A stretch of 46,214 nucleotides of DNA from Bacillota bacterium (GTDB lineage Bacteria; Bacillota; SHA-98; UBA4971), in NCBI GenBank assembly GCA_040752635.1, contig JBFMGS010000002.1:12618-58831 (forward strand), given 5' to 3'. Position numbers and translations under genes: made by a program. The notes beneath the pieces were generated by a model. It searched no databases. It was not told the DNA's origin and worked only from the letters and a program-made list of their open reading frames with translations. Shown here piece by piece: positions 2,253-29,033 of the stretch (its first letter is position 1; the number at the start of each line of letters is the position of its first letter).

Positions 2253-2948
2253 TTACGTTTCAATTGTAACCCGCCTGCCATCGCGGTGGACCTTGCCCTC
2301 TGCGATAGCTTTGATGCATTCCACGAGGAGTTCGTGCTCCTGCGTGAGGATCCGAGCCGAGAGGGCATCCACGGTATCATCGGGCAACACAGGCACAACG
2401 CGCTGGCCGATTATGGGGCCTGTGTCCACTCCACCGTCCACGAAGTGCACTGTGCAGCCGCTGTACCTAACTCCGTACTCAAGGGCCTGCCTTTGTGCAT
2501 CAAGACCCCGGAAAGCCGGAAGAAGCGACGGATGTATGTTAATAATCCGATCCCGAAACGCGCTCAGGAAGGTATCGCCCAGGACCCTCATAAACCCCGC
2601 AAGCACCACGAGATCCGGCGCGAACCTGCGAACCGCATCGACCAGGTCTCGCTCGAACTCTGACCGCGAGGCGTAACTATCGCGGGTGACCACCAGGCGG
2701 GGTATGCGGTGACGTGCGGCTCTTTCCAGAGCGGGTGCATCCGGGTTGTCGCACACAAGCCCCGCCACCTTCGCAAGCAGCCTCCCCGTTTCCGCTGCGT
2801 CGATTATGGCCTGGAAGTTCGTCCCCCGACCTGAGGCCAGCACCACGATACTGAACGGGGCGCCATTGGACCGGCCGCGGCCGAATCCGTCACGCGGGCT
2901 TCTACCCGACTCGCCGCGCGGCAAACTACCCGTTAACCTGCCCGCCAA
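2253..2948 (-). CDS. purN: Phosphoribosylglycinamide formyltransferase (start uncertain)
   Basis: [48 protein letters not shown]. Confidence 0.95.
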
Positions 2949-5391
2949 CGAAGCTCACCTCCCCATCGCCAGGGATCACTTCGCCCACGACATAACAACG
3001 CTCGCCCGCCGCCCTGAGGAGTGCCAGGGAGGCATCGATGTCCTCGGGTCTGAGCGCCACGAGGAACCCGATCCCCATATTAAAGGTCCGGCGCATCTCA
3101 TGGTCCTCCACGTTCCCCAGCCTCTGGATGAGGCCGAAGATCGGGGGGACGGGCCAGGATCCAGGGTGGAGCCTGATAGCAAGGCCGGGCGGCAGCATCC
3201 TCGGCGGGTTGTCGATGAGACCTCCCCCCGTGATATGCGCCATGCCCCGAATCCTGACCGCAGCCGCAAGGTCCAGGATGGCCCGCACATAGATCCGCGT
3301 AGGCTCAAGGAGTTCAGTCACCAGGGGGCGACCGAGGCCGTCCGGCTCGTCGTGAAGACCCAGGCCCGCAAGGTCAAACAGGACGTGCCTTGCGAGCGAG
3401 AATCCGTTGCTATGGAGCCCGGAAGACGCAAGCCCCACCAGGACGTCCCCTGGCTGTATCGAGCTTCCGTCTACCAGGCTGCGTCGCTCCACAACCCCTA
3501 CCGCGAACCCTGCCACGTCGTAGTCGCCGACCTGGTAGAACCCGGGCATCTCCGCGGTCTCGCCCCCGAGCAGGACGCACCCTGCTTGCCTGCAGCCTTC
3601 TGCCATCCCCGACACCACGCGCGCCACCTTATCCGGGTCGATCTTTCCTTGGGAGAGGTAGTCCAGAAAAAACACCGGTCTGGCGCCGCATGTAAGTATG
3701 TCGTTCACGCACATGGCTACAGCGTCTATGCCGATGGTGTCGTGTCTATCCGCTTCTATTGCCACGCGGAGCTTGGTCCCAACCCCGTCCGCCCCTGCTA
3801 CAAGAAGCGTTTCGCCACTGCCCGCGGCATCTAGACGGTAAACTCCCCCGAATCCGCCAAGCCCCCCGATGACATGGTGGTTCATCGTAGATTCCACGGC
3901 CTCGCGGATGAGATCAACAGCCTTCATCCCGCGGCCGATGTCCACCCCGGCATCGGCATACGTTGCACTCGACCCAGTCCACCCGGGCTCCGCCTTGAGT
4001 TCGACCGGGACAGGGTAGTCCCCATCGAAGCACGCTAGACAAAACCGCCTGCCCTGTCCCCCGGCACGGTTCATGGCCTCGAGCAAACCTTCCCTGCTGA
4101 GGTAGTGAAGGCTATCGGCCCCGGTCATGGCGAGGACATAATCCTTACCGTCGGACGCAGCCAACCTGTCCCCACGGCGCGAAGTGTCGATCCCGTAGAA
4201 GCACGGATAAGCTATCGGAGGTGATGCCACCATAAAGCCGATTGTTCTCGCCCCGGCCTCGCGCAGCAACCTCACCAATCTTGCGCTGGTGGTACCCCTG
4301 ACGATGGAATCGTCCACAAGCAGCACGCGCTTTCCTTCCACCACTCGCCTTACAGCGTTCAGCTTCAGTCTCACGCCCCGGCTGCGAAGGTCCTGACTGG
4401 GCTGGATGAACGTCCGGCCGAGGTAGCGGTTCTTGACGAGCCCGTATTCGAACGGGATCCCGCTCTCCCTCGAAAAGCCAAGACCCGCGGCAACGCCGGA
4501 TTCCGGAACGGGGACCACAACGTCTGCCTCCACTTTGTGTTCTCTTGCCAGCATACGGCCCATTTCGTACCTGGCCTCGTTTACGTTGATACCCTCAATG
4601 ACACTATCAGGCCGGGCAAAGTAGATGTATTCAAACACGCAGGTCGAGCGTCTCACCGCAACCGGACCTCGAACGGACCGAACTCCACCCTTGTCGATCA
4701 CAACGATCTCGCCCGGGTCGATCTCCCGTAATAGTTCCGCGCCAATAAGATCGAGCGCGCAGGACTCCGACGCAATGGCGTAGCCCCCGGGCAAAGCGCC
4801 GAGGCACAGCGGCCGGAACCCGTAGGGGTCGCGCATTCCGATTAGTCTCGCTTCGGTCATCATTACAACCGAGTACGCACCCTCAAGGTCGATCATACAC
4901 TTGAGGAGCGCATCTTCCAGGTCGTTTTGGGCATACCTTCCGAGAAGACAGCCCAGGATCTCCGTGTCCACGGTAGTCTGAAATACCGAACCTGACACGC
5001 CCAGGGACTTGCGCAGTTCGCCGGCGTTCACCAGGTTTCCGTTGTGAGCAAGGGCGAGATCGCCCCACGGGTAATGGAAAAGAAGAGGTTGAGCATCTGT
5101 GATCCCGGGCGATCCTGCTGTTGAGTAACGTACATGGCCGATGGCTGTGTTCCCCTGAAGCCTGCGGATGACATCAGGGTTGAACACCTCGGACACCAGG
5201 CCCATCGCCTTGTGGAGGCGGATCCCTGCGCCCTCGGACGAGGCGAGCCCCGCGCTTTCCTGGCCCCGGTGCTGAAGCGCATGCAGCCCATAGCAGGCAA
5301 GCTCTGCCGCGTCGTGGTTGCTCGTGCTCACTCCGATGACTCCGCAGTGCTCACGGATTCCAAAAGGTTCTGCTATGATTCCAGGGCCCAT
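2926..5391 (-). CDS. purF-purM: Fused amidophosphoribosyltransferase (PurF) and AIR synthetase (PurM), 821 aa
   Basis: N-half: propeptide then [35 protein letters not shown] and Fe-S cysteines (CVFE, PCFYG, CLAC). C-half: [52 protein letters not shown]. No stop codon between them. Confidence 0.93.
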
Positions 5392-8653: not shown

Positions 8654-8720
8654 GTGCTTCCGGTGTTGCACCACACCTTGTGCAACCACCGGCAACCTCT
8701 CCAAAGTTTCAAACACTCCG
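8654..8720 (-). repeat. Copy 1 of intergenic bulged-palindrome family
   Basis: Minus strand: GAGTGTTTGAAACTTTGGAGAGGTTGCCGGTG-G-TTGCAC, 8-nt loop, GTGCAACACCGGAAGC. Confidence 0.7.
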
Positions 8721-10080: not shown

Positions 10081-10111
10081 TGCTGACGCCCCTTCATGGT
10101 AGATTCAAGGA

Positions 10112-10166
10112 CAAATGATTAAGCCCCGGCGGATAGGTTTCGAGTGAAACCTATCCGCCGGGGCTT
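10112..10166 (-). terminator. Riboswitch-controlled intrinsic terminator ahead of purE
   Basis: Perfect 21-bp inverted repeat AAGCCCCGGCGGATAGGTTTC/ACTC/GAAACCTATCCGCCGGGGCTT followed by AATCATTT. Its 5' arm is the 3' end of the aptamer. Confidence 0.85.
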
Positions 10167-10262
10167 TTATCCCTCAAGGTGTAGCGCCGCAATCTGCGGG
10201 CCTGCATCGCTTGGACCGAACCCCGCCCTTTGCGGCCAGGTGGAACCCTAGATGCACTTTCC
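10144..10262 (-). ncRNA. ykkC-family riboswitch aptamer, probably PRPP-sensing (subtype 2b)
   Basis: GGAAAGTGCATCTAGGGTTCC...GGTCCAAGCGATGCAGG...TACACCTTGAGGGATAAAAGCCCCGGCGGATAGGTTTCAC matches the ykkC hallmarks (CUAGGGUUCC, ACAC, GGGAUAAAAGCCC) with the extra terminal pairing of subtype 2. Lies upstream of de novo purine genes. Confidence 0.9.
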
Positions 10263-10351
10263 CTCGCGTGCCGACACGCCCACCCCTCGCCGTGAAGGAA
10301 ACACCGGCTGGCAACGTCGGCACTACATGGTATTTAGTTTTCTTTGTCTTC

Positions 10352-10381
10352 ACAATAGCATACGACACTCAGAGGTGTCAA
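10352..10381 (-). promoter_or_regulatory. SigA-type promoter of the pur operon
   Basis: TTGACA-18 nt-TATTGT with extended -10 TG. Confidence 0.7.
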
Positions 10382-10523
10382 GACCACCAAACTGCAAAAA
10401 ACGAAGAATGAGGGCTCAACTACATACGCCGAGATACATACGCGGACGGGTTCAGGCTACTACGGTAGGAGGCAAGCCCGCCGTTCCAAATGGCAGGCGG
10501 TCACTTGGTCTCAGTTCGGGGAG

Positions 10524-11125
10524 TCACAAGGTGTTCTGTGAGCGGTACACGCCAGCCCCATCGAGTTCCGCGGCCTCATATAGTTGCCTCGGCATTCCTT
10601 GAAGCCCCGCCAGAAAGATCATCATGCTTCCGCCGACGGTCCAGAGGCTCTTTACGACAAGCGTCGGTTTCGACCAGCGCTCTGACCCCAGCCACAACGG
10701 GCTGCGTACCCCAAAGAGTCCCAGAATGTGGCCTATGAGGCCGTGTTCGGGGTTAAACATCCATACCCAGAAGACCGTCGAAGACCGCCGCCGCGATGGC
10801 GGGCACTACGGTAGGCAGATAGAACCCGGTTCGAAACAGCCACACCCCACGGATCCTCTGGTTCAGGTGCACAGCAAGCAGCAATGAGATAACCACCTGG
10901 AGAGGTACGCTCAGGAACACGAAGTAGAAGGTATTGTACAAGGCGGTACAAAACTGGCCATCGCCAAGCATCTCGCGGAAATTCGCAAGGCCTATGTGTG
11001 TCGGCTTGTCGAGGGCGCTGAAATCGCTGAATGCATACCTGATGGAAACCAGCATGAGCCACAGCATGAGCAGCGCGAACCCGACGAGCCACGGCGATAT
11101 GAAGAGGTAGAACGTCAATCCCTCT
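10524..11125 (-). pseudogene. Frameshifted, truncated carbohydrate ABC transporter permease (MalF/UgpA-like)
   Basis: Frame 1: FYLFISPWLVGF...IGLANF...ALYNT...FRTGFYLPTVVP. Frame 2: FNPEHGLI...WL...IFLAGLQGMPRQLYEAAELDGAG (EAA loop), then an early stop. No partner ABC genes nearby. Confidence 0.85.
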
Positions 11126-16660: not shown

Positions 16661-18058
16661 TCACCGCCAGATGGTGACGCGTGTCTCATGGACCATTGAT
16701 GGATTTGTCACCACGCGCTGTCCCTCGCGCAAGCCCTCGACAACCGCCCATTCGGCGTCAGCGGCCTTGACGCTCACAGGCCTTCTCACGACCCCGAGAT
16801 TGACCGGCACGTATACGATATCCCCCTCACCGGTATGGACGACCGAGCGCCTGGGAATCACCAGGCCTGAGACGGTCTTCCCGATGATGTTCAGACGAAT
16901 GCGGCGCCTGTAATAGAGGTCCTCGGGGAAGCCGGAGATCTCGAGCAACATGGCCCGCTCCCCGTCGGGCGCAGCCTCGCGCGTGTAGAATACCTTCGAT
17001 GCGAGAGACGGTCCGCCAGGAACCGACGCAAACCTCACACGGAGGCCACGCGACGAGTCAAGCTCGGCAACCTGGTCGGCACGGGGGAATACAAGAACAA
17101 AAAGGCGGTAGTTGTCTATCAAACGAAAGATGGGCTGTCCCGCATCAACACCCGCCCCGGCCTGAATCCGCCCGGGTGAAGGGACCAGGGATCGGGCCTC
17201 GTCGGGTCCCAGGTCTTTGCAGGTGCGAGGTGAAAGAACGTGCTCGAGACCGTCGAGTTCGAAACTAACGACCCCGGGGCTTTCGGCGCGCAGTTGGAAC
17301 ACAACCCGCCGGTAGGTTGCCTCGCACTGCTTGACTTTATCAGCAAACGACTGCCCTTTGATCTCAAGCGCTTTCTTCTCGCGTTCCAACTCCTGGACGG
17401 CCATGTCTAACGCTTTCTTCGCCTCGGCCAGGGCAGACGTATGTTCTCTTACCCCTTGGGCGTCGCCGGATGACCTGGCGCGCGCAAGCGCTCGCTTTTC
17501 ATTCTCCACGTTGAGCCTGCACGCTGCGACCTCTTTGCCAAGTTGGTCAAGCCTGCCACGAGCGTATGCATCCAACTTCGCAAGTTCCTCCCTCGCCTTC
17601 TTTAGTGGGAGCTCAACTCGGAGCCTCGCCTGTTCTTCCGCCACCTCCGCAATGATTGACCCAACTCTCACCTTTTCGCCCTCGGAGGCCACCAGCTTGA
17701 CGGTCCCGGAAACTGGGGTCACAAAGACCTTTTCATCTCTCACCACGATGCCATCGAGCTCGAGAGCCTGTTCCACCGTGCCCCACGTAGCCCGCGCACA
17801 CTCCAGCCGCTTCTCAACAGCCCAGATGCTGGACCCTCTGTAAAGGGACCAGACAGCGAGCGCGACAACAGCAAGGAAAAGAACTGCAGCGCTCGCCACG
17901 AGCGGCCGCGAACGCTTCCCCCTCCTCGCCTCTCTGATGTCAGCTTCGGTCTCAAGAGCCTTATCCGCAACGACACGCAGGTGAGGCGAATAGCAGAGCA
18001 CACGTTTTCTGTGGCTCATGCAACCGCGGCTTTCCGCCCCACCCGGCACGCGCAACAC
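16661..18058 (-). CDS. HlyD/membrane-fusion-like protein (start uncertain)
   Basis: Single TM helix, lipoyl-like halves (SGTVKL..EGEKV; SPGVVSF.LDGLE) around a coiled coil; this family typically sits upstream of yggS in clostridia. Confidence 0.75.
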   Translation of the reverse strand: MLRVPGGAESRGCMSHRKRVLCYSPHLRVVADKALETEADIREARRGKRSRPLVASAAVLFLAVVALAVWSLYRGSSIWAVEKRLECARATWGTVEQALELDGIVVRDEKVFVTPVSGTVKLVASEGEKVRVGSIIAEVAEEQARLRVELPLKKAREELAKLDAYARGRLDQLGKEVAACRLNVENEKRALARARSSGDAQGVREHTSALAEAKKALDMAVQELEREKKALEIKGQSFADKVKQCEATYRRVVFQLRAESPGVVSFELDGLEHVLSPRTCKDLGPDEARSLVPSPGRIQAGAGVDAGQPIFRLIDNYRLFVLVFPRADQVAELDSSRGLRVRFASVPGGPSLASKVFYTREAAPDGERAMLLEISGFPEDLYYRRRIRLNIIGKTVSGLVIPRRSVVHTGEGDIVYVPVNLGVVRRPVSVKAADAEWAVVEGLREGQRVVTNPSMVHETRVTIWR

Positions 18059-18231: not shown

Positions 18232-19041
18232 CTACTCAGGAATGAACATAAGCGCGGCCATGCGGCCAGTTGTGCCTGAAGCGCCGCGGTATGAGAAGAA
18301 AAGGTCCTCTCGACAGGAGGTGCAGAGCGTTGATACGAGGATGTTGTCGCGCGCAAGCCCGGCTATCAGGAGCTCCTTTCGACACGCCTCCTTGAGATCC
18401 AGGCGAAACTTCCCCCGTCCGGCGGGTAACGCCACGTCCGCGCTGCGAGCGGCTGTCTGGCAAGCGACTGCGACCTCCCGACCGACTTCGTAGCAGCAGG
18501 ACCCGATAGACGGTCCGATCCCGGCCAGAATGTCGCCGGGCTTGAGGCCAAACGCCCTGCAAAGCGTCGCTACAGCCTGCCCCGGAGCATTCAGGGCAAC
18601 GCCTCTCCATCCTGCATGAACCAGTCCGATCGCGCGACCCCCTCGATGGACGAGGAAGATTGGCACGCAATCGGCAACATAGCACGAGAGCACGACCCCG
18701 GGGTACGATGTGACAAGGCTGTCGGTGGCGGGTATCCCCGGAGAACCCGGGGCCCACTCACACCCCCGGTCATTCGGCCCGACAACAGCCGTATGGCTAC
18801 CATGCACTTGCACGCCGGCGACCAGAGCGTCGGAAGGCGCTTCGACGGCCCGAAGCACCCTCTTTCTGTTCTCCCCCACACACGCGGGATCATCGCCCAC
18901 GTGGTAGCCCATGTTGAGCGTGGCAAAAGGCCCGACGCTCACCCCACCCAGCCTCGTTGTAAACGCGTGGGATACCACGCCGAGTGCGGATAGCTCGGGA
19001 AACACAAGGTACGATACACCATCGCTCAAACGTAACTCCAA
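18232..19041 (-). CDS. pgeF: Peptidoglycan editing factor / purine nucleoside phosphorylase PgeF (YlmD)
   Basis: FTTRLGG, QVHG, ADCVPI, HAGWRG, IGPSIG.CCYEVG, FFSYR. TTG start after GAGGAGG. Confidence 0.93.
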   Translation of the reverse strand: MELRLSDGVSYLVFPELSALGVVSHAFTTRLGGVSVGPFATLNMGYHVGDDPACVGENRKRVLRAVEAPSDALVAGVQVHGSHTAVVGPNDRGCEWAPGSPGIPATDSLVTSYPGVVLSCYVADCVPIFLVHRGGRAIGLVHAGWRGVALNAPGQAVATLCRAFGLKPGDILAGIGPSIGSCCYEVGREVAVACQTAARSADVALPAGRGKFRLDLKEACRKELLIAGLARDNILVSTLCTSCREDLFFSYRGASGTTGRMAALMFIPE

Positions 19042-19056
19042 CTCATGTCCTCCTCG

Positions 19057-19151
19057 GGGGTTGTCGGTGATTGCATTGGGGGCAAACAGCGTCAGACCAC
19101 GGGCGGTGGCAAGCTCCGAGTGGGAACCCAGGATGCAACACCGGCAACCCC
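19057..19151 (+). repeat. Copy 2 of intergenic bulged-palindrome family
   Basis: GGGGTTGTCGGTG-A-TTGCAT, 56-nt interior, ATGCAACACCGGCAACCCC. Confidence 0.75.
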
Positions 19152-19345
19152 AGCAGCGTTCGTAATCAGTACTGCCCTGTCACGTATGCGTTCCTTGCCA
19201 GAATCATGGGTTCGAAGGCCACTGACGCAGTGACTCCCCGGCCAAATGGTGCAACCAGAGCCGCTGAACCGGGTTGTCGTTCCGTATCTGACAAAGCGGT
19301 ATTGGGAGTGGCATGGACTCTTGGCGACTAACGTAGCAAGATGGC

Positions 19346-19801
19346 CTATTCCTCTTCGTGGAGTTTCTTGAGTTCTTGCATAAATGTGTCTATATCCTTG
19401 AATTCCCTGTAAACCGAGGCAAAACGCACATAGGCCACCTTGTCAAGGCTTCGCAGCTTGCGGACGACCATCTCTCCGATAACTTCGCTCGATACCTCTG
19501 GATCCAGACGCCCCCGCAGTTCTCGTTCGACTTCGCTGGTCACCTGCTCCAATACGTTCATGGGAATAGGGCGCTTCTGGCACGCTTTCATCAGACCGGT
19601 TAGAATCTTGTTGCGATTGAACGGCTCTCTCCTGCCGTCCTTCTTGACCACCATGAGAGGGACCTCGTCAACCGTTTCGTAGGTGGTGAACCTTCGCTCG
19701 CACGAAAGGCATTCGCGCCTTCGCCGAATTGCGGAGCCCTCGTCAGTCGCCCGGGAGTCTACAACCTTGCTCTCCGGGTATCCACAGTACGGGCACCTCA
19801 T
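19346..19801 (-). CDS. nrdR: Transcriptional repressor NrdR
   Basis: [30 protein letters not shown] cone, [13 protein letters not shown]. Confidence 0.98.
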
Positions 19802-19841
19802 GCTGTTCCCTCCGACAGGTCGGGTTTACCAGGGGAAGTCC

Positions 19842-19896
19842 CTTCTACATATCGTGACTTACTCTCATTATAGCCCTCAACATCTGGCATGTGCAA
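19842..19896 (-). promoter_or_regulatory. nrdR promoter with tandem NrdR-box-like sites
   Basis: TTGCAC-18 nt-TATAAT; CTACATATCGTG (19845) and CAACATCTGG (19878) resemble the CwAtATaTwGtg core and flank the -10. Confidence 0.55.
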
Positions 19897-19959
19897 TCCT
19901 GTCTGACATCTCGGTCCAAACGATAGCCCCACTCGCAAGCACTACGTAGCAGTTCAAAA

Positions 19960-20049
19960 GCATTTCCGACTTTGCCGGAGGTTGCCGATGATTGCACGAG
20001 GGGCCTTCGGAATTCGGCAAGTGACGGAACGCAACACCAGCAACCCCGG
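19960..20049 (+). repeat. Copy 3 of intergenic bulged-palindrome family
   Basis: AGCATTTCCGACTTTGCCGGAGGTTGCCGATG-A-TTGCAC...GCAACACCAGCAACCCCGG. Confidence 0.7.
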
Positions 20050-20218
20050 GCAGAGTGTGCCGTAAAAAGTGGTGTGGATTCCTGACGGCCTGTTTACCAT
20101 CCTTGGATGTGTTTAGGCCTCATACATGTGCAGAGCATTTGACTTTGCTCATTGTCGCGACCCGAGACGCCTTCAGCCGTAACAGTGCTAATTGAGCTTG
20201 CTGAGTTAGGTTCTGCCA

Positions 20219-20248
20219 GAATAAAAACGAGTTCAAGAGGCAATACTT
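20219..20248 (+). promoter_or_regulatory. SigF/SigG-type promoter of sigG
   Basis: GAATA-15 nt-GGCAATACTT, matching the forespore sigma consensus. Confidence 0.65.
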
Positions 20249-20289
20249 CTACTGAAGTTGAGATATTCTGGAAATGCGGAGGGACCCCT

Positions 20290-21063
20290 ATGATGGTGAA
20301 CAAGGTTGAGATCTGCGGGGTCAATACGTCCAAGCTGCCAGTGCTCAGCAACCAGAAAATGCGCGAATTCCTTGAACTCGTGAAAAAAGGGGATAAAGAC
20401 GCGCGCGAAAAGCTCATATACGGAAACCTCCGCCTGGTGCTCAGTGTGATACAGCGGTTTAATAACAGGGGCGAGTACGTGGACGACCTCTTTCAGGTCG
20501 GATGCATAGGCCTCATGAAAGCGATCGATAACTTTGATCTGTCACAGAATGTGAGATTCTCAACGTACGCCGTCCCGATGATAATCGGAGAAATCAGGCG
20601 GTATCTCCGCGACAACAACCCGATCCGGGTTTCCCGATCCTTACGGGACGTGGCTTACAAGGCCCTTCAAGTAAGAGATGCGCTCGTCAGCCGGAACTCT
20701 AAGGAACCGTCCATCAGCGAAATCGCTGAGGAACTTAAGCTTCCGCGCGAGGAGATCGTGTACGCGCTCGACGCCATTCAGGACCCGGTATCGCTCTTTG
20801 AACCCATATACCACGACGGCGGAGATCCAATCTATGTTATGGACCAGGTAAGCGACGAGAAAAACCAGGACTCCACGTGGCTCGAGGGTATATCCATAAG
20901 GGAGGCAATGGAGAAACTCAACGAAAGAGAAAGGCTGATCCTGAAGCTGCGCTTCTTTGAGGGAAAGACCCAGATGGAGGTCGCGGAGGAGATAGGAATC
21001 TCCCAGGCCCAGGTGTCGCGACTGGAGAAAGCTGCGCTGAAACATATGAGACGGTTCATGTAG
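20290..21063 (+). CDS. sigG: Forespore sigma factor SigG
   Basis: NKVEICGVNTSKLPVL, GNLRLVLSVIQRF, DDLFQVGCIGLMKAIDNF, EIRRYLRDNNPIRVSRSLRD, GISQAQVSRLEK. ATG at 20290 after GGAGGG. Confidence 0.98.
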   Translation: MMVNKVEICGVNTSKLPVLSNQKMREFLELVKKGDKDAREKLIYGNLRLVLSVIQRFNNRGEYVDDLFQVGCIGLMKAIDNFDLSQNVRFSTYAVPMIIGEIRRYLRDNNPIRVSRSLRDVAYKALQVRDALVSRNSKEPSISEIAEELKLPREEIVYALDAIQDPVSLFEPIYHDGGDPIYVMDQVSDEKNQDSTWLEGISIREAMEKLNERERLILKLRFFEGKTQMEVAEEIGISQAQVSRLEKAALKHMRRFM

Positions 21064-21085
21064 ACGGCCCACGGAGGTGACCGCA

Positions 21086-21919
21086 TTGCGGGCAAGGATC
21101 GCAGTATGCGTTCTTATACTTCTCACTACCGTAATCGCAATACTAGCCTCGGCTGCAGTGTTCGATGCCAGGCTGTTCCCTCAAGAAGTGGGAGCCCCAA
21201 AGGCGTTCAACACTCACAACCTCATTCGATTGCATGTCGTGGCAAACAGCGATAGTGAAGAGGACCAGTCCCTGAAACTGGACGTCCGAGACGCTGTAGT
21301 CGCAAGGACGGAGGAACTCCTGGGCAGGGTGAAAACAAAGGAGGAGGCCTGGCGTATACTGCTTGATAATCTTGGTGAGATCCAGGCCGTTGCCACAAAT
21401 GAGATCAGAAAAGCGGGCAGGCATTACCAGGCGCTGGTTGAGATGGGGACGTTCGCCTTCCCCGAGCGCAAGTATGGCGGGCTCACCTTACCCGAAGGAG
21501 ACTACGAAGCGGTAAGGGTGGTGCTTGGCGCCGGCAAAGGCCGGAATTGGTGGTGTGTGCTCTTTCCGCCACTTTGCTTTATAAAGATGAATGAAAACAG
21601 AGAAGTAGAGGGGCTGAAATACGAGCTCTCCCCCGGGGAGGCCCTGGCGAAGCTTCGCCTGGACCTGACAGGACCATCCTCGCCTCAGGCTGCACGGACT
21701 CTGGGGACGAGTGAATATGTACCCCTCGTTCCGGTTTTTGGCGCGTCCGTTCCCCATCTTCTCTCCTGCAACACAATACCCGCCATAATGTTCTTTTCAG
21801 CACCTTACCTGCCGGAGCCCGTAAAGCCGAGCCTCTCGTGCCTCCTTTCACTGGGTAGCTCGGCGCGGGCTCTCAACCATCGCACCGCCGCTCGAACCGG
21901 GCAAGCTGCCGTCCTGTGA
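21086..21919 (+). CDS. spoIIR: Stage II sporulation protein R
   Basis: Signal peptide, IRLHVVANSDS..DQ.LKL.VRD, FP...YG...PEG.YEA, GRNWWCVLFPPLC. TTG after GGAGGTGA. Confidence 0.95.
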   Translation: MRARIAVCVLILLTTVIAILASAAVFDARLFPQEVGAPKAFNTHNLIRLHVVANSDSEEDQSLKLDVRDAVVARTEELLGRVKTKEEAWRILLDNLGEIQAVATNEIRKAGRHYQALVEMGTFAFPERKYGGLTLPEGDYEAVRVVLGAGKGRNWWCVLFPPLCFIKMNENREVEGLKYELSPGEALAKLRLDLTGPSSPQAARTLGTSEYVPLVPVFGASVPHLLSCNTIPAIMFFSAPYLPEPVKPSLSCLLSLGSSARALNHRTAARTGQAAVL

Positions 21920-22001
21920 CTCTTCACTCCATTTCAAAGCGAAAGGTTCCAGGGCGAGTTCAAGGTTCAGTATGATCCAACCAATCCTGGCCGGAGGCAC
22001 G

Positions 22002-22029
22002 CACAGACCCCCACTGCGGTGCATATAAT
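22002..22029 (+). promoter_or_regulatory. Possible SigK/SigE-type promoter of ylmC
   Basis: CACA-16 nt-CATATAAT. Confidence 0.5.
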
Positions 22030-22060
22030 GGTTTATGCAGGCTCGTGGGGGGTGATTGCC

Positions 22061-22321
22061 ATGCTCGTGCGAATATCGGACCTTCGAACCCGTGAGGTGG
22101 TAAACGTGGTAGACGGCCGGAGGCTGGGGCCGATCTGCGACATCGAGGTGGACCTTGCCACAGGCCAGGTGAAGTCGATAATGGTGCCCGGCCCGGCGAA
22201 ACTTATGGGTATTCTGGGGCGGTATAACGACTATGTCATCCCCTGGGAGAAGATTCGTAGAATAGGACTTGATGTCATCCTTGTAGAGGCAAGCGAGTAC
22301 GCCGAACCTTCAAAACAATAA
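22061..22321 (+). CDS. ylmC: YlmC/YmxH family sporulation protein (PRC barrel)
   Basis: ISDLRTREVVNVVDGRRLG.I.D.EVD, IPWEKIRRIGLDVILV. Confidence 0.93.
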   Translation: MLVRISDLRTREVVNVVDGRRLGPICDIEVDLATGQVKSIMVPGPAKLMGILGRYNDYVIPWEKIRRIGLDVILVEASEYAEPSKQ

Positions 22322-22322
22322 T

Positions 22323-22404
22323 GGGGTTTCCGGCAAGCGGTCGGGCCTCGAGTGCCCTCAAGCAAGCACCGGCAACCCCCGTCCCCCAAAATGGCGAACA
22401 CTCC
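22323..22404 (-). repeat. Copy 4 of intergenic bulged-palindrome family
   Basis: Minus strand: GGGAGTGTTCGCCATTTTGGGGGACGGGGGTTGCCGGTG-C-TTGC...GCCGGAAACCCC; lies between convergent genes. Confidence 0.65.
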
Positions 22405-22411
22405 CATAAGC

Positions 22412-23797
22412 CTACTCGCCCGCGGCTGCCACCACCCTCTCCTTTGCCTTCTGGTAATCGCTCTCCCAAGCTGCATCCGCGATCTTGCCGTACGCTTCGG
22501 CATACTCGTCTAGCTGCCCCGCAAGCACTGTTGTGACGCAATCGGCGCCCGCATGGGTCGGACGCGCTCCATGCTTTGCAACGAGTTCCCTCAGTATGCG
22601 AGGGTTATCTATGATCATGCAAGGTCTCAAATGATTACTGTTGAAGGGCATTCTCGACTTGATGTCCATGAACAGCGGGGACTTTATTACTTCCTTCAAA
22701 GTGGTATTCTTGATGTTGTCCACCGCGAAATGCACGAAGACGCAAGGCTCGATGTCACCGTTGGCGTTTATGTGCAGGTACGACCTCCCGCCAGCGATAC
22801 AACCCGCGGTTAGCGGGCCATCGTTCCAGAAGTCTGCAACGAATATCGGTCTCGTTTCCCGGATATGAAGCACGTGCCGACGCATGCGGTCGCGCTGTTC
22901 GGGCGAGCACATCAGGCTCATGTCTGCGTCCTTGCCGACGGGCACGAACGTGAAGAACCACCCGTATAAAGCCCCCTTATCGATGAGCATATCGATGAAC
23001 TCGTCGCTCGCCACAACATCCGTATTCTGGCTGGTGTATGTAGCGGAGAATCCGAAGACAGCCCCAGCGTCTCGGAGATTGTCCATGGCCTCCATGACTC
23101 TGGCAAATGTCCCGGGTCCTCTTCTCGCGTCAGTCTCTTTCTCGAAGCCTTCAATGCTGATCGCGGGAGAGATATTCCCGAGTTCGGATAAGCGTCGCGC
23201 GGTGGCCGTGTCGATGAGGGTGCCGTTGGTATACACCATAAAGACCACGTCGTCGTGGCGTTCAGCCATATCCAGGAGATCCTTCCTGGTAAACGGCTCC
23301 CCACCCGATATGACTATGAAGTATATGCCAAGATCCTTGGCTTCTTCGATGATTCTGTTGAAGGTCGCCGTGTCGATTTCATCGTGCTTCGTGTAGCGGC
23401 CCGCGTAGCACCCCGTACACTGAAGGTTGCACCGCATTGTAGGGCTGATTACAAGCAGCGCCGGCACGTGGGTACCCAGTTTCTCGCTGTGTTTCTTGCG
23501 CTCCTGGTACCCCATATAGACTTCGTTCACGAACAGGTTAACAAGGCCCCGCGTTCGGAAGTTCGGGTGGAGGGAGGAAAAGGCTCTCTGGGCGTAGCGA
23601 GTCCAAACGTGCTCAGGGTTCTCGAACGCCTCCTTCGCCATCTGGATCTGTTTCTTGTGTTCAGGCGTTCCCGCAAACGCATCCAGTATCTTTGTTAGCG
23701 TCAGGAGGTGGCGTTGAGGATCTTTTGCAAGCAGTGAAAGCATATAATCAACCGCCTGGGTCGCAACATACTTCTTCATAAGATCATACGCTTTCAT
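22412..23797 (-). CDS. Radical SAM protein with SPASM/twitch-like C-terminus
   Basis: CNLQCTGC (CX3CX2C), SGGEP, YTNGT, SIEG, GCIAGG..Y.HINANGDIEPC, RPCMIID. ATG at 23797 after AGGGGGG. Confidence 0.92.
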   Translation of the reverse strand: MKAYDLMKKYVATQAVDYMLSLLAKDPQRHLLTLTKILDAFAGTPEHKKQIQMAKEAFENPEHVWTRYAQRAFSSLHPNFRTRGLVNLFVNEVYMGYQERKKHSEKLGTHVPALLVISPTMRCNLQCTGCYAGRYTKHDEIDTATFNRIIEEAKDLGIYFIVISGGEPFTRKDLLDMAERHDDVVFMVYTNGTLIDTATARRLSELGNISPAISIEGFEKETDARRGPGTFARVMEAMDNLRDAGAVFGFSATYTSQNTDVVASDEFIDMLIDKGALYGWFFTFVPVGKDADMSLMCSPEQRDRMRRHVLHIRETRPIFVADFWNDGPLTAGCIAGGRSYLHINANGDIEPCVFVHFAVDNIKNTTLKEVIKSPLFMDIKSRMPFNSNHLRPCMIIDNPRILRELVAKHGARPTHAGADCVTTVLAGQLDEYAEAYGKIADAAWESDYQKAKERVVAAAGE

Positions 23798-23889
23798 CAA
23801 GGACCCCCCTCTTCTTGGTTGTACGCTGTCCACAGTGTCTACTGCTCCTCAAGGATGCCCAACGACATGCTAGACACGGTAATGGCTTG

Positions 23890-23908
23890 CCCAAAAGACC
23901 AAAAAGCT
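23890..23908 (-). promoter_or_regulatory. Putative operator, copy A (upstream of radical SAM gene)
   Basis: AGCTTTTTGGTCTTTTGGG; 18/19 identical to the site at 24714-24732. Confidence 0.65.
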
Positions 23909-23980: not shown

Positions 23981-24703
23981 TCATGTGACGCTGGCCATTT
24001 CTCGGACGAACTCCAGCAGGACAGCCCTCTCCTGACCGTCCAGGCTGTCAACATGCCCTTGAAATCTTCTCAGGTAGTCCGCTATCTTCGAGGTAATGCC
24101 AGTGGATTCGGGAACACGCACGAGAAGCATCCCTATGATCGCACCGGAAAACAATGTAAGCGCGCTATGTGCATCGACCGTCGTTCTTGTCAGTTGCATT
24201 ACGGCGCTGAAGTTGTCTCCCCCCAGAAAACGTGCGCACGCGAGGAGCAGAACCACCATGTAACCGCAGAAAGCCGCCGGCCCCTTCGCCTCGTCTAGTC
24301 TCTCCATGAAGCTATCCCAAAACTCCTGCGCCGCCAAGCTTGGTAATTCTGAGAGGTAGTTTAGAAGCCTTCTCTTGAGGGTGTGGAGTTCATCGCTGAA
24401 AACAAGGCGGCCGCCTCCCCCTTCCGATTCTGGCTTACGACCAGATGGTCCGTCAGATAGGTCCCCTGGGTACCGGGGACAAAAAACCACCATCGACCTT
24501 CCAGGCGTCCTCGATTCCCTGTTCAGGATGTACTCGACCCGGACCAGCCCGTCGGCTGCCAGTTTCCTGAGCATGTCATATGCAGTCCATTTGCTCACTC
24601 CCACGGCCCGTGCCACTGCCTCGTAGTGAACCGGCCCGCTCTGTTCGTCACACAGTTTACGGAGCGCTGCGAAAAACTCTTTGCTGCGGTCGGTCAAGCT
24701 CAA
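23981..24703 (-). CDS. Winged-HTH transcriptional regulator
   Basis: PVHYEAVARAVGVSKWTAYDMLRKLAADGLVRVEY...GRS (wHTH), then a helical C-terminal domain. TTG start inferred. Confidence 0.85.
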   Translation of the reverse strand: MSLTDRSKEFFAALRKLCDEQSGPVHYEAVARAVGVSKWTAYDMLRKLAADGLVRVEYILNRESRTPGRSMVVFCPRYPGDLSDGPSGRKPESEGGGGRLVFSDELHTLKRRLLNYLSELPSLAAQEFWDSFMERLDEAKGPAAFCGYMVVLLLACARFLGGDNFSAVMQLTRTTVDAHSALTLFSGAIIGMLLVRVPESTGITSKIADYLRRFQGHVDSLDGQERAVLLEFVREMASVT

Positions 24704-24713
24704 GCTGATTTCC

Positions 24714-24742
24714 CCCAAAAGACCCAAAAGCTCTGCCCAAAG
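24714..24742 (-). promoter_or_regulatory. Putative operator, copy B (overlapping regulator SD)
   Basis: CTTTGGG..AGCTTTTGGGTCTTTTGGG; tandem CTTTTGGG repeats. Confidence 0.65.
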
Positions 24743-24861: not shown

Positions 24862-25602
24862 TTACTCTGCCTTTCTCATCTCCCTCCGAAGCTTCCTGAT
24901 AATCCTCTTCTCCAGCCGGGATATGTATGACTGTGATATGCCCAAGAGGTCAGCCACTTCTTTCTGGGTTTTCTCGGTGCCGTCGCGAAGCCCGAACCTC
25001 AGCTCCATAATCCGTTTTTCCCTGGTGGAAAGCCTCTGCATGGCATCATCCAGCAGTGATCGGTCAACCTGTTCCTCTATGGATTTGTACACAACATCGT
25101 TTTCTGTTCCCATGACGTCGGATAGGAGCAGTTCGTTTCCGTCCCAGTCAACGTTGAGCGGTTCGTCGAAGGAGACTTCAGCCCTCGCTCTGCTTGTTCT
25201 CCGCAGGTACATGAGGATTTCGTTCTCAATACACCGCGAGGCATATGTGGCCAGCTTGATCTTCTTAGAAGGATCGAACGTGTTCACAGCCTTGATTAGG
25301 CCTATGGTGCCAATGGATACAAGGTCCTCAACTCCGATCCCCGTGTTCTCGAACTTCCTCGCTATGTACACGACCAGCCTGAGATTCCTCTCGATGAGTT
25401 CGCCCTTTACCTGCGAGTCTCCCCGCTCGAGCCTTGCCAGGAGTACGCTCTCTTCGTCACTGGAAAGCGGCGGCGGCAGGGTTTCCCCATTCCCGACGTA
25501 CAGCACGACATAGCCACGAATGAGCCCACGCCGCAACGCGCCAAGCACCAGTCGAACTCGAAAGGCAACAAGCCTCTGTTGAAGGCGCAATCCTGTGATC
25601 AT
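24862..25602 (-). CDS. sigE: Mother-cell sigma factor pro-SigE
   Basis: Basic pro-sequence, [76 protein letters not shown]. Confidence 0.98.
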
Positions 25603-25646
25603 TCTGGTCTCCTCCCCGGGCAATGCTGGCGCCGTCGAACTCGCTT

Positions 25647-26525
25647 CTAGGATGCCTTTGCCAGGACGTCGGGGTGAAGGAGGGCAGCAAAAGCCCCCTC
25701 CGGGGAGAACCGTCTAGTGTGTATTCCCACTACTATATTCCGGCTGGACAGCACGTGCGAACCATTGAGCAACCTGATCTCATCTGCTCGGAAGCCCACC
25801 AGCAACCCCTTCTCATCCCCCACCGAAACGAAAGGGATCACGCGAAACCGGGGCAGCCAGGTTGAGTCCGCGAGCAATTCCGAGACCAGACCAAGGTCCC
25901 CCGCGTAGAAGGCCATAAATGCGCGCCTTACCTCTTCTGGCAGGGAATGCGCTATAGCCCCGTATTCCAGAAGGATCACCGGGGAACCGGTGATCGGGTC
26001 CCTCAAGTGGTTTCCTGTATCAATTAGCGCGTTAACCTTGAGGTGCACTTCCCCAAGACGAATCTCTATCGGCACGTAGAAGAGCCAGTCCCGGACCCTG
26101 CGATGCACCAAGCCCCAACCGATTTCCGCCGTCAAGAGCACGGTGCCGATGAGACCGATGAGCGTTGGCACGAGTCGCCACCCGGTCAGGTAGGCCGCAG
26201 CCGAAGCGCCCCCGAAGGCGACGAGGCTGATGCCGAGCACGTGCGCGCAAGCTATCATCAGCCTTGGCGCGGAGGACGGGCGGAACGATATTGTTATCGC
26301 CGGTACAATAGACAGCAGGGCAAAAGGTACAGCGGCTCGCGCCGAAACGTATCCTGCGAAGAACATTACCATGACCGCCGCATCGACTAAGCCTGCTACC
26401 GCTCCCCCGGCGAAGAACCGCAAGGGCTTCACCTTATAGCCAAGCACTCCGGCGGTCGCCCACAGAGTGAGCCAGTGCATGGTGAGCGTCATCACGCAGG
26501 CGTTTAGAATGACTCCATAGCCCAT
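25647..26525 (-). CDS. spoIIGA: Pro-SigE processing aspartic protease
   Basis: Multiple TM helices, [22 protein letters not shown]; directly upstream of sigE. Confidence 0.9.
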
Positions 26526-26619
26526 TTGTCCGCCCCCCAAGACTACCTCTCTTTTCCCGTCTTTTCCCGGCCTGTTGTCGTCCCTATCCTTCAATCAACG
26601 GGCATCCTTTCCTCCCTAA

Positions 26620-26729: not shown

Positions 26730-27791
26730 CTATTTTCTCTGCCTTTGCGCGCGGCGTAGGAAAGCCGGAATCTCGATATCTTCCGCCCCGGCAAAGTCGC
26801 TGATCTCCACTTCCTGGAGGCCAACCTTCTGACGGGGCTTCGGCTCGAAACCGGTTGCGATCACCGTAACCCTGATCTCATCGCGCAAGGACTCATCGAT
26901 CATCGCGCCGAAAATGATGTTAGCGTCGGGGTCCGCCGCCTGAGCGATGATCTCGGCCGCCTCGTTCACCTCGAACAGGCCCAACGTGCTATTGCCGGTA
27001 ATGTTCATTAGCACGCCTTTTGCGCCGTCTATCGACGTCTCAAGGAGCGGGCTCTGTATCGCGGCCCTCGCCGCCTCCTGGGCGCGGTTTTCGCCCGTTG
27101 CCACTCCGATTCCCATGAGCGCCGAACCAGCGCTGCTCATGATTGTTCGTACGTCGGCAAAGTCCACGTTTATCAGACCGGGGACGGTGATAAGGTCAGA
27201 AATGCCCTGAACACCGTGTCTTAATACATCATCGGCAAGCCGGAACGCATCGAGGATCGATGTCTTCTTCTCACTAACCTGCAGGAGACGGTCGTTGGGA
27301 ATGGTTATGAGCGCGTCCACCTTCGCCTTGAGACTATCGAGGCCGACCATCGCCTGGGCCATCCGCCTGCGTCCTTCAAAGGCAAACGGCTTTGTCACGA
27401 CACCCACCGTAAGTGCCCCGAGCTCTTTCGCTATTCCAGCAACCACCGGCGCACCCCCCGTGCCCGTGCCGCCACCCATGCCTGCCGTGATAAAGACCAT
27501 GTCCGCCCCTTCAAGTGCACGGCGCAGCACGTCATAGCTTTCCTGGGCGGCCTGCTCGCCGATCTCGGGGTTCGAACCTGCGCCAAGGCCTCTTGTGAGC
27601 TTCTCTCCAACCTGGATCTTCACGTTCGCGTCAGATGCCGCGAGGGCCTGGGCGTCCGTGTTGATTGCGACAAACTCAACCCCAGACAGCCCTGCAGCGA
27701 TCATGCGATTAACGGCGTTGGAACCTCCGCCCCCAACGCCGACCACTTTTATGTTGGTGAACTGCTCCATCTCGAGCTCCAGGTTGAACAC
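26730..27791 (-). CDS. ftsZ: Cell division protein FtsZ
   Basis: [33 protein letters not shown]-terminal DIEIPAFLR. Confidence 0.99.
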
Positions 27792-27853: not shown

Positions 27854-29014
27854 TTAGAAGAAGTCCTTTACGAAATCGGCAAACCACCCCCGAACCGCAG
27901 AGAACATCTCCCTGACCGGCGAGGGCTTCATCTCTCTCGACAGCCCGAAAACAGAATCGTTCGCGACGTATTCCACGATCCCGAGAGCCGTGGAGGATAA
28001 CCTTTGTCCGTCTCTGCCGCGAGGTGATTTAGTGTCAACCGGACCCCCTATCCTCGCAGGCAAGCCGAGGATCTCGCCAGCGAGGTCGAGCAGGCCCGGT
28101 ATGAGCGAGCCGCCGCCCGCGAACACCAGGCCGCAAGGCGCAAGACCTTTATTCCTGACTTCTCTCGTTTCCACATCGACAAGCTCCAGGATCTCCCGCA
28201 GCCTCGCATCTATGATCGTTTGGAGAAGGCTGTCAGCAAGCTCGCCCTGCTTCTTCATACTCTCGGCCTGCTCTACTGGAACCTTCATGCCCACAGCAAT
28301 GTCATTAGTAACGTGGACGCCGCCAGCAGGAACCCACGCAAACTGAACGGGCCCCCCCTCGCAAAATGAGACCACCTGCGTGATTTGTCCGCCGACATCT
28401 ACGAGGATCACGCCTCTCTCCATCTCATCAGGAGTCAAGACCGCTTCAGCCACCGCAATGGGATCTAGTACCAGTCCACCGATGGCAAGGCCCGCCCGCG
28501 CAACGCTTGCTGTGATGTTCTCAAGCACCGTGGCCTGGCCCATGATGACTCTGGCATCTACTTCCAGTCTGATACCCGTCATGCCCTCCGGGTCTCTGAT
28601 CCCTCCAACCCCGTCCACGATATACTCCCTCGGCAAAACGGAGATTATCTCCCGGTCAGAGGGAACTGCGAGCACCCCCGCGGCGTCCAGCGCCCGTTTC
28701 ACGTCGGCGCTGGTGATCACCCCGTCCGGGCTGCTAACGGCAGTAACTCCCCTGCTCCCAACGGACGTGATGTGCGTGGCCGGGACCCCTACGTAGACCC
28801 TGCGGACGTCTAACCTCGCCGTGTGGCAGGCCCGCTTGTTTGCAAGCTTAATGGCCCCGGCCACAGAATCGATATCTGTGACGAGGCCTCGCCGGAGACC
28901 CTGGCATGGCGCCTCGCCTATGCCAATAATCTCGATGTCGCCCGAAGGTGCGATCCTCGCTATGACTTCTGCTACCTTTGTGCTGCCGATGTCAAGCCCG
29001 GCGATGATGCTCAT
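27854..29014 (-). CDS. ftsA: Cell division protein FtsA (divergent)
   Basis: GLDIGSTKV, 1C domain (VDG..GIRDP.GMTGIRLE), VTNDIA, C-terminal amphipathic helix; precedes ftsZ. Confidence 0.92.
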   Translation of the reverse strand: MSIIAGLDIGSTKVAEVIARIAPSGDIEIIGIGEAPCQGLRRGLVTDIDSVAGAIKLANKRACHTARLDVRRVYVGVPATHITSVGSRGVTAVSSPDGVITSADVKRALDAAGVLAVPSDREIISVLPREYIVDGVGGIRDPEGMTGIRLEVDARVIMGQATVLENITASVARAGLAIGGLVLDPIAVAEAVLTPDEMERGVILVDVGGQITQVVSFCEGGPVQFAWVPAGGVHVTNDIAVGMKVPVEQAESMKKQGELADSLLQTIIDARLREILELVDVETREVRNKGLAPCGLVFAGGGSLIPGLLDLAGEILGLPARIGGPVDTKSPRGRDGQRLSSTALGIVEYVANDSVFGLSREMKPSPVREMFSAVRGWFADFVKDFF

Positions 29015-29033
29015 ACATGCCACCTGTCAAGTA

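Follow-up and report, generated by a model that had tools for sequence, protein, structure and literature searches.

How did a block of three sporulation genes come to lie backwards in one of the most conserved gene orders of endospore formers, spoIIGA-sigE-sigG, and did the short repeats at its two ends turn it around? The stretch of DNA that raises this question, here called the window (G000:C2:12618-58831; 46,214 nt), covers the dcw/ftsAZ, spoIIG, ylm and pur region of an uncultured spore-forming Bacillota bacterium, whose fragmented genome assembly comprises 196 contigs (2.58 Mb); the sequencing runs containing the window are labelled as groundwater, subsurface and biofilm metagenomes. In this window sigG, spoIIR and ylmC stand on the plus strand among minus-strand genes. 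We conclude that the block was very probably inverted once, in an ancestor of the family to which the genome belongs, and became fixed, and that the flanking repeats are later insertions.

We compared about 20 kb around sigG from all 22 species genomes of the class, 18 of which belong to the window's family (genera g1, which is this genome, g2 and g3) and four to two sister families, and from 18 more distant members of the phylum. Twelve window proteins were located on the relatives' loci by tblastn. All four sister-family genomes read spoIIGA-sigE-sigG-spoIIR-ylmC-nrdR on one strand, and flipping the block in silico yields an identical order, as a first-pass annotation of this DNA had anticipated when it stated that a flip would give back the canonical arrangement. 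That annotation had also proposed looking at the orientation in related genomes: the inversion, sigG(+)-spoIIR(+)-ylmC(+), is common to all 17 other genomes of the family. Its left neighbour there, on the minus strand, is nrdR or, failing that, mfp, and its right flank is a minus-strand radical SAM gene and/or sigE. The contig of G013 ends so that only the right junction is present, that of G010 is 3.9 kb long, without sigE and with both minus-strand neighbours, and in G009 a distance of 12 kb separates sigG from sigE, which stands on the other strand. As a separate observation, the G009 locus (L039, G009:C11:7400-27200) has no ylmC, radical SAM gene or sigE within about 9 kb 3' of spoIIR, and extra DNA has apparently been inserted inside or beside the block.

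Outside the family, sigE is followed by sigG on the same strand in 19 of 22 loci; two have no sigE in the stretch examined, and in one (G023) the spoIIGA-sigE pair is flipped. A separate broad survey took in 80 named Bacillota loci, among the matches listed in a SigG scan. Here sigE precedes sigG on the same strand in 75 loci and is missing from the stretch in the other five, ylmC comes after sigG in 65, pgeF in 51 and nrdR in 26, and none of the 12 query homologues lies on the strand opposite sigG. Among the matches listed, the inversion of sigG is absent from all 97 sigE-containing loci outside the family, which comprise 94 co-oriented loci, G023 and two further ones. With the spoIIGA-sigE-sigG order intact in at least 94 outside loci, the inversion is real, derived, rare and fixed at the level of the family, where it forms a clean synapomorphy. 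The annotation had left open a fixed event as one of its two options, and the single orientation in all 18 family genomes agrees with that option. No description of an inverted sigG block turned up in those parts of the literature that our search covered. The exceptional locus of G023 (L053, G023:C6:6000-25700), from a different family of the phylum, has spoIIGA-sigE flipped relative to both ftsZ and sigG; it is an independent rearrangement that likewise uncouples sigG from spoIIG.

Set against the canonical spoIIGA-sigE-sigG locus of Bacillus subtilis, the window shares ftsA, ftsZ, spoIIGA, sigE, sigG, ylmC, pgeF/ylmD, a ylmE-like gene and sepF, and sigG keeps its own predicted forespore-type promoter. 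It differs in the strand of sigG-spoIIR-ylmC, which is the opposite one, in the 3.8 kb between sigG-spoIIR-ylmC and sigE, and in the radical SAM gene and the gene for a 248-aa protein that stand in that space. The locus is a family-specific variant of the canonical spoIIG-sigG arrangement, with the same genes and the same promoter on the opposite strand: an ordinary though uncommon lineage-specific rearrangement of a highly conserved locus, which calls for no new mechanism. We propose that the ancestor of the family (18 species genomes in three genera) would have undergone one local inversion of exactly sigG-spoIIR-ylmC, later fixed, with one ancestral breakpoint separating sigE from the sigG promoter and the other separating ylmC from nrdR. 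That the event was single is suggested by the distribution of gene orders.

The radical SAM gene occupies its position on the sigE side only in the window's family. Its orthologues in the sister families, 59-73% identical, lie on other contigs, so the ancestral lineage must also have moved or inserted the gene at the sigE-side breakpoint. In G002 there is no radical SAM gene at this position, and ylmC and sigE converge with 37 nt between them. The sister-family radical SAM/SPASM orthologues (L151-L153) each contain one in-frame stop, TGA in G018 and G020 and TAA in G019, which could reflect selenocysteine, a frameshifted alignment or a pseudogene.

The promoter of sigG travelled with the gene. 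It is predicted at 20219-20248 on the plus strand and consists of GAATA (20219-20223), 15 nt and GGCAATACTT (20239-20248); 3' of GGCAATACTT come a leader and a GGAGG ribosome site. The last ~75 nt ahead of the sigG start codon can be aligned across the family and the sister families, and the motif GAATA-15 nt-GGCAATACTT is kept in 18 of 18 family genomes and three of the four sister-family genomes, adjoining sigG in inverted and canonical genomes alike. Upstream of the motif the same alignment shows no conservation. We take the two boxes to fit the sigma-F/G consensus. The block carries a conserved promoter of its own, as had been claimed, whose putative SigF/G type is assigned from this consensus and from the spacing. 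A spacing of 15 nt is common for sigma-F promoters, for which PMC5942855 gives 14-15 nt. Because the conserved motif accompanies sigG, the left breakpoint can be placed between the start of nrdR (19801) and 20219. The right breakpoint falls in the interval 22321-22412.

With sigG on the plus strand and sigE on the minus strand, read-through from spoIIGA-sigE is impossible, which bears out the earlier statement that sigG has been uncoupled from spoIIG. The stop codon of sigG and the start of spoIIR are separated by only 13 nt, so the two genes are probably co-transcribed. From the inversion onwards sigG, and probably spoIIR too, would have been transcribed solely from the forespore-type promoter, divergent from nrdR. 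The family shows that read-through from spoIIG is dispensable in nature, in agreement with the B. subtilis experiments of PMC5942855, and the loss of coupling was plausibly neutral.

An alternative to neutrality is that the inversion insulated the forespore module from mother-cell or pre-divisional read-through and placed a convergent pair, the radical SAM gene and a regulator, in between. We regard this as unlikely. If true, the family would be a natural experiment in which production of sigma-G and SpoIIR relies on the forespore promoter alone. An extension of the same idea, that young opposed element copies now allow low-frequency re-inversion in this species, is much less likely.

What, then, are the repeats at the two ends of the block? 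We searched the whole window with a 21-nt degenerate pattern allowing ≤3 mismatches and obtained four matches, at 8681-8701 (minus), 19055-19075 (plus), 19976-19996 (plus) and 22361-22381 (minus), and none in any of 100 shuffles. The junction repeats themselves were found with an 8-nt seed on 19000-23500 together with this pattern; they are missed when the whole window is searched for repeats with a seed of 11 nt and a minimum of 20 nt. Copy 1, of about 46 nt (~8656-8701, minus strand, from the pattern match and the fold), lies between purS and purC. Copy 2, of 95 nt (19057-19151, plus strand), lies between nrdR and pgeF; its arms pair in the minimum free energy (MFE) fold and one of them is an exact core. 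Copy 3, of 70 nt (19978-20047, plus strand, from pattern and arms), resembles miniature inverted-repeat transposable elements (MITEs) or repetitive extragenic palindromic (REP) elements and sits between the divergent promoters of nrdR and sigG. Copy 4, a degenerate 56-nt copy located where ylmC and the radical SAM gene converge (22324-22379, minus strand, from pattern and arms), is inside the right breakpoint interval; one of its arms is the exact 13-nt core and the other has three mismatches, counted by eye. All four copies are intergenic. Each consists of two arms, left and right, around a variable interior and forms an imperfect palindrome; in three of the four the arms pair in the MFE fold.

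The flanking repeats are members of a dispersed MITE/REP-like family and not a dedicated pair. In this genome the 13-nt core occurs 51 times exactly, 113 times at ≤1 mismatch and 340 times at ≤2 mismatches, against 0, 8 and 121 for a reversed-core control at the same levels. In most cases a plus-strand arm is followed by a minus-strand one, which gives 42 paired elements of 35-283 nt whose commonest sizes are about 69, 117 and 206 nt; the arms are slightly asymmetric, so that each element has an orientation. Merging arms at ≤1 mismatch gives 84 elements genome-wide. Copy 3 is 81% identical to a consensus of 17 elements of 60-80 nt (range 0.47-0.91), and other genomic copies match it at 74-84%. 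Core counts per genome range from 1 to 169 in g2 and from 0 to 7 in g3, with zero in three of the eight g3 genomes; all of these g2 and g3 genomes carry the inversion. REP elements, bacterial interspersed mosaic elements (BIMEs) and MITE-like elements share several features with this family: they are short (35-283 nt here), lack coding capacity, carry conserved inverted arms at their termini around interiors of modular build, and number from tens to hundreds of copies per genome, a number that varies strongly among related species. The family differs from them in having no Rfam match in the window and no transposase partner: in a search for REP-associated tyrosine transposases (RAYTs), with other transposase families not searched, the only Y1-transposase (PF01797) match is a fragment on C68 with no core at ≤2 mismatches beside it.

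Two candidate rearrangements at these elements were rejected. A joint from 20004 to 20208 in X4, one of the sequencing runs described below, was considered as an empty site of copy 3 and is too weak (depth 4.5, side 25), and joints from 20004 to 19134 with other letters between them correspond to other genomic copies of the element. Beside copy 2, the pgeF-nrdR spacer also holds a second, distinct dispersed repeat of ~137 nt (19166-19303) with eight other genomic copies at 75-85% identity; in contigs of X3 and X4 it is skipped, 19164/19166 being joined to 19306, which suggests presence/absence between close strains.

The first-pass annotation attributed the inversion to recombination between copies 3 and 4. 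As it described, copies 3 (plus) and 4 (minus) bound the block, one in each flanking intergenic space and on opposite strands, but we consider it very improbable that they caused the event. The two copies share only 27 nt at 81% identity without a long exact run, and in a direct comparison of the spacers the pair scores the same as the best-scoring of 30 shuffles. Relatives share the inversion without the repeats, an observation that the annotation had itself named as telling against its proposal: 17 of 17 are inverted and 0 of 17 have the core (≤2 mismatches) in either junction spacer. In seven of the 15 relatives with both junctions, all of them from g3, only 0-4 nt separate ylmC from the radical SAM gene, too little for a repeat of any kind to fit. 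The best inverted junction matches in the other eight score 6-9, inside the shuffle range. Genus g3 is nearly devoid of the element family and yet inverted.

The relative ages of the repeats and the inversion point the same way. At four-fold degenerate sites of sigG, ftsZ and sigE, identity between this genome and the others is 0.33-0.53 for g2 and 0.15-0.31 for g3: neutral sites across the family are at or near saturation. Yet copy 3 is still typical of its family at 81% of consensus, and arms of copies 2 and 4 retain an exact core, which argues that the copies are younger than the inversion. On this sequence-based ordering, the repeats would be palindromic non-coding elements with a 13-nt terminal core, inserted into intergenic spaces long after the block had turned. 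The case illustrates that repeats flanking a rearrangement need not be its cause, small elements settling in whatever intergenic space is available.

Several points weigh against our reading of a fixed inversion and later repeats. Each breakpoint interval contains one of copies 3 and 4, and the two are in inverted orientation, the expected leftover of a repeat-mediated event. Nowhere else in the genome do three of the 84 elements fall within 3.5 kb, as they do between 19057 and 22379. The MFE fold of copy 3 leaves its arms unpaired with each other, and the fold z-scores of the four copies, -0.35 to -2.11, are unremarkable. A tree of FtsZ, SigE and SigG, in which partial or missing genes draw G006, G009 and G010 into a long branch that is an artefact, leaves the branching order of the three genera unresolved, and we draw no conclusion from it. 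By parsimony alone, ancestral junction repeats could have been lost in a single later step; the saturation of neutral sites argues against this. A last point is that orientation within populations was read from assembled contigs only, in which a rare alternative orientation could escape.

The second option of the annotation, a switchable inversion that toggles forespore coupling within populations, is less probable still. We used assembled Logan contigs of four runs (X1-X4), a data type that drops rare variants; X1 and X2 are possibly the source samples, and X3 comes from a different study and is about 99% identical. A single contig in each of X1 and X2 spans 18900-23900 without a difference, and X3 contigs covering 19135-21486 and 21457-23023 include both junctions, with copies 3 and 4, in the assembled orientation. 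No strand-changing joints occur in the assembled contigs of the four runs, a weak argument in view of that loss of rare variants. The locus does share with an inverton a block of genes that has its own promoter and is bracketed by repeat copies in opposite orientation. It differs in showing one orientation in 18 species and in the contigs of three studies, in having no recombinase or invertase among the 46 named open reading frames (ORFs) of the window (no genome-wide search was made), and in having repeats that are short, diverged members of a dispersed family of ~84 elements absent at the relatives' junctions. The likeness to an invertible switch is only superficial. An assembly artefact, for which the fragmented state of the genome and the repeats flanking the block might speak, has a next to negligible probability: the arrangement recurs in 17 related species that were assembled independently, the separate-study X3 contigs bridge both junctions, and the copies share far too little exact sequence to mislead an assembler.

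Genes in the window were named with NCBIfam profiles and their cut-offs, and with Pfam for the remaining long ORFs. In the block, sigG (20290-21063, plus strand) encodes the late forespore sigma factor of 257 aa (TIGR02850, 509.5 bits against a cut-off of 457) and is 88-95% identical to its family relatives. spoIIR (21077-21919, plus strand; TIGR02837, 172 bits against 152; PF09551) encodes the forespore signal for pro-sigma-E processing. ylmC/ymxH, for a PRC-barrel sporulation protein (TIGR02888, 84 bits against 44; PF05239), occupies a plus-strand ORF at 22019-22321; the TIGR02888 match begins at residue 18 of the ORF and the likely start is the ATG at 22061. The SpoIIR protein is 280 aa long, with the family domain covering residues 20-175 only. 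Matches in relatives end near residues 200-250, and the C-terminal tail of about 100 aa (21602-21919) is lineage-specific and variable.

Nine minus-strand genes adjoining the block were named by NCBIfam. To its left lie mfp (16661-18058), pgeF/ylmD (18232-19041) and, as immediate neighbour, nrdR (19346-19801; TIGR00244, 205.6 bits), with a sigma-70-like promoter match at 19895-19867 on the minus strand in which 10 of 12 positions agree. The right-hand neighbour is the radical SAM/SPASM gene (22412-23833, NCBIfam and Pfam), followed by the gene for the 248-aa protein (23981-24727), which has a weak N-terminal winged-helix match (TrmB and Fe_dep_repress, both sub-cut-off) and was found in g1 and g2 and undetected by tblastn in g3. 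Further on come sigE (24862-25623; TIGR02835, 401 bits, above the equivalog cut-off), spoIIGA (25647-26594; best match TIGR02854 at 117 bits, below the cut-off of 209.55), ftsZ (26730-27791) and ftsA (27854-29023), the last two named by NCBIfam, all on the minus strand.

Elsewhere in the window, 32 of the 34 long minus-strand ORFs have Pfam matches. They include purH/N/F-M/L/Q/S/C/E in the pur part, the cell division and wall genes ftsQ, murA/B/C/G, ftsW, mraY and murF/E, and rluD, lgt, lspA, sepF, a ylmE-like gene, mraW, mraZ and a gene for a penicillin-binding protein. On the plus strand, Pfam matches are absent from the ten longest ORFs outside the block, and across the window there is no Rfam RNA at the gathering threshold and no tRNA by ARAGORN, so that the 46 kb contain no credible plus-strand genes other than sigG, spoIIR and ylmC, as had been noted from the letters alone. 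Plus-strand GC skew is -0.08 to -0.15 throughout the window and about 0 over the block only.

Two minor observations concern the pur part. Upstream of purE, ~670 nt (10081-10752) lack a credible gene and have no Rfam match, and no purine riboswitch was called there; this gap contains a perfect 21-nt hairpin at 10121-10166, and a 32-nt direct repeat lies at 10459/10805. An apparent purF-purM fusion forms one 821-aa ORF on the minus strand (2926-5391), with GATase_6/7 and Pribosyltran (PurF) followed by AIRS and AIRS_C (PurM).

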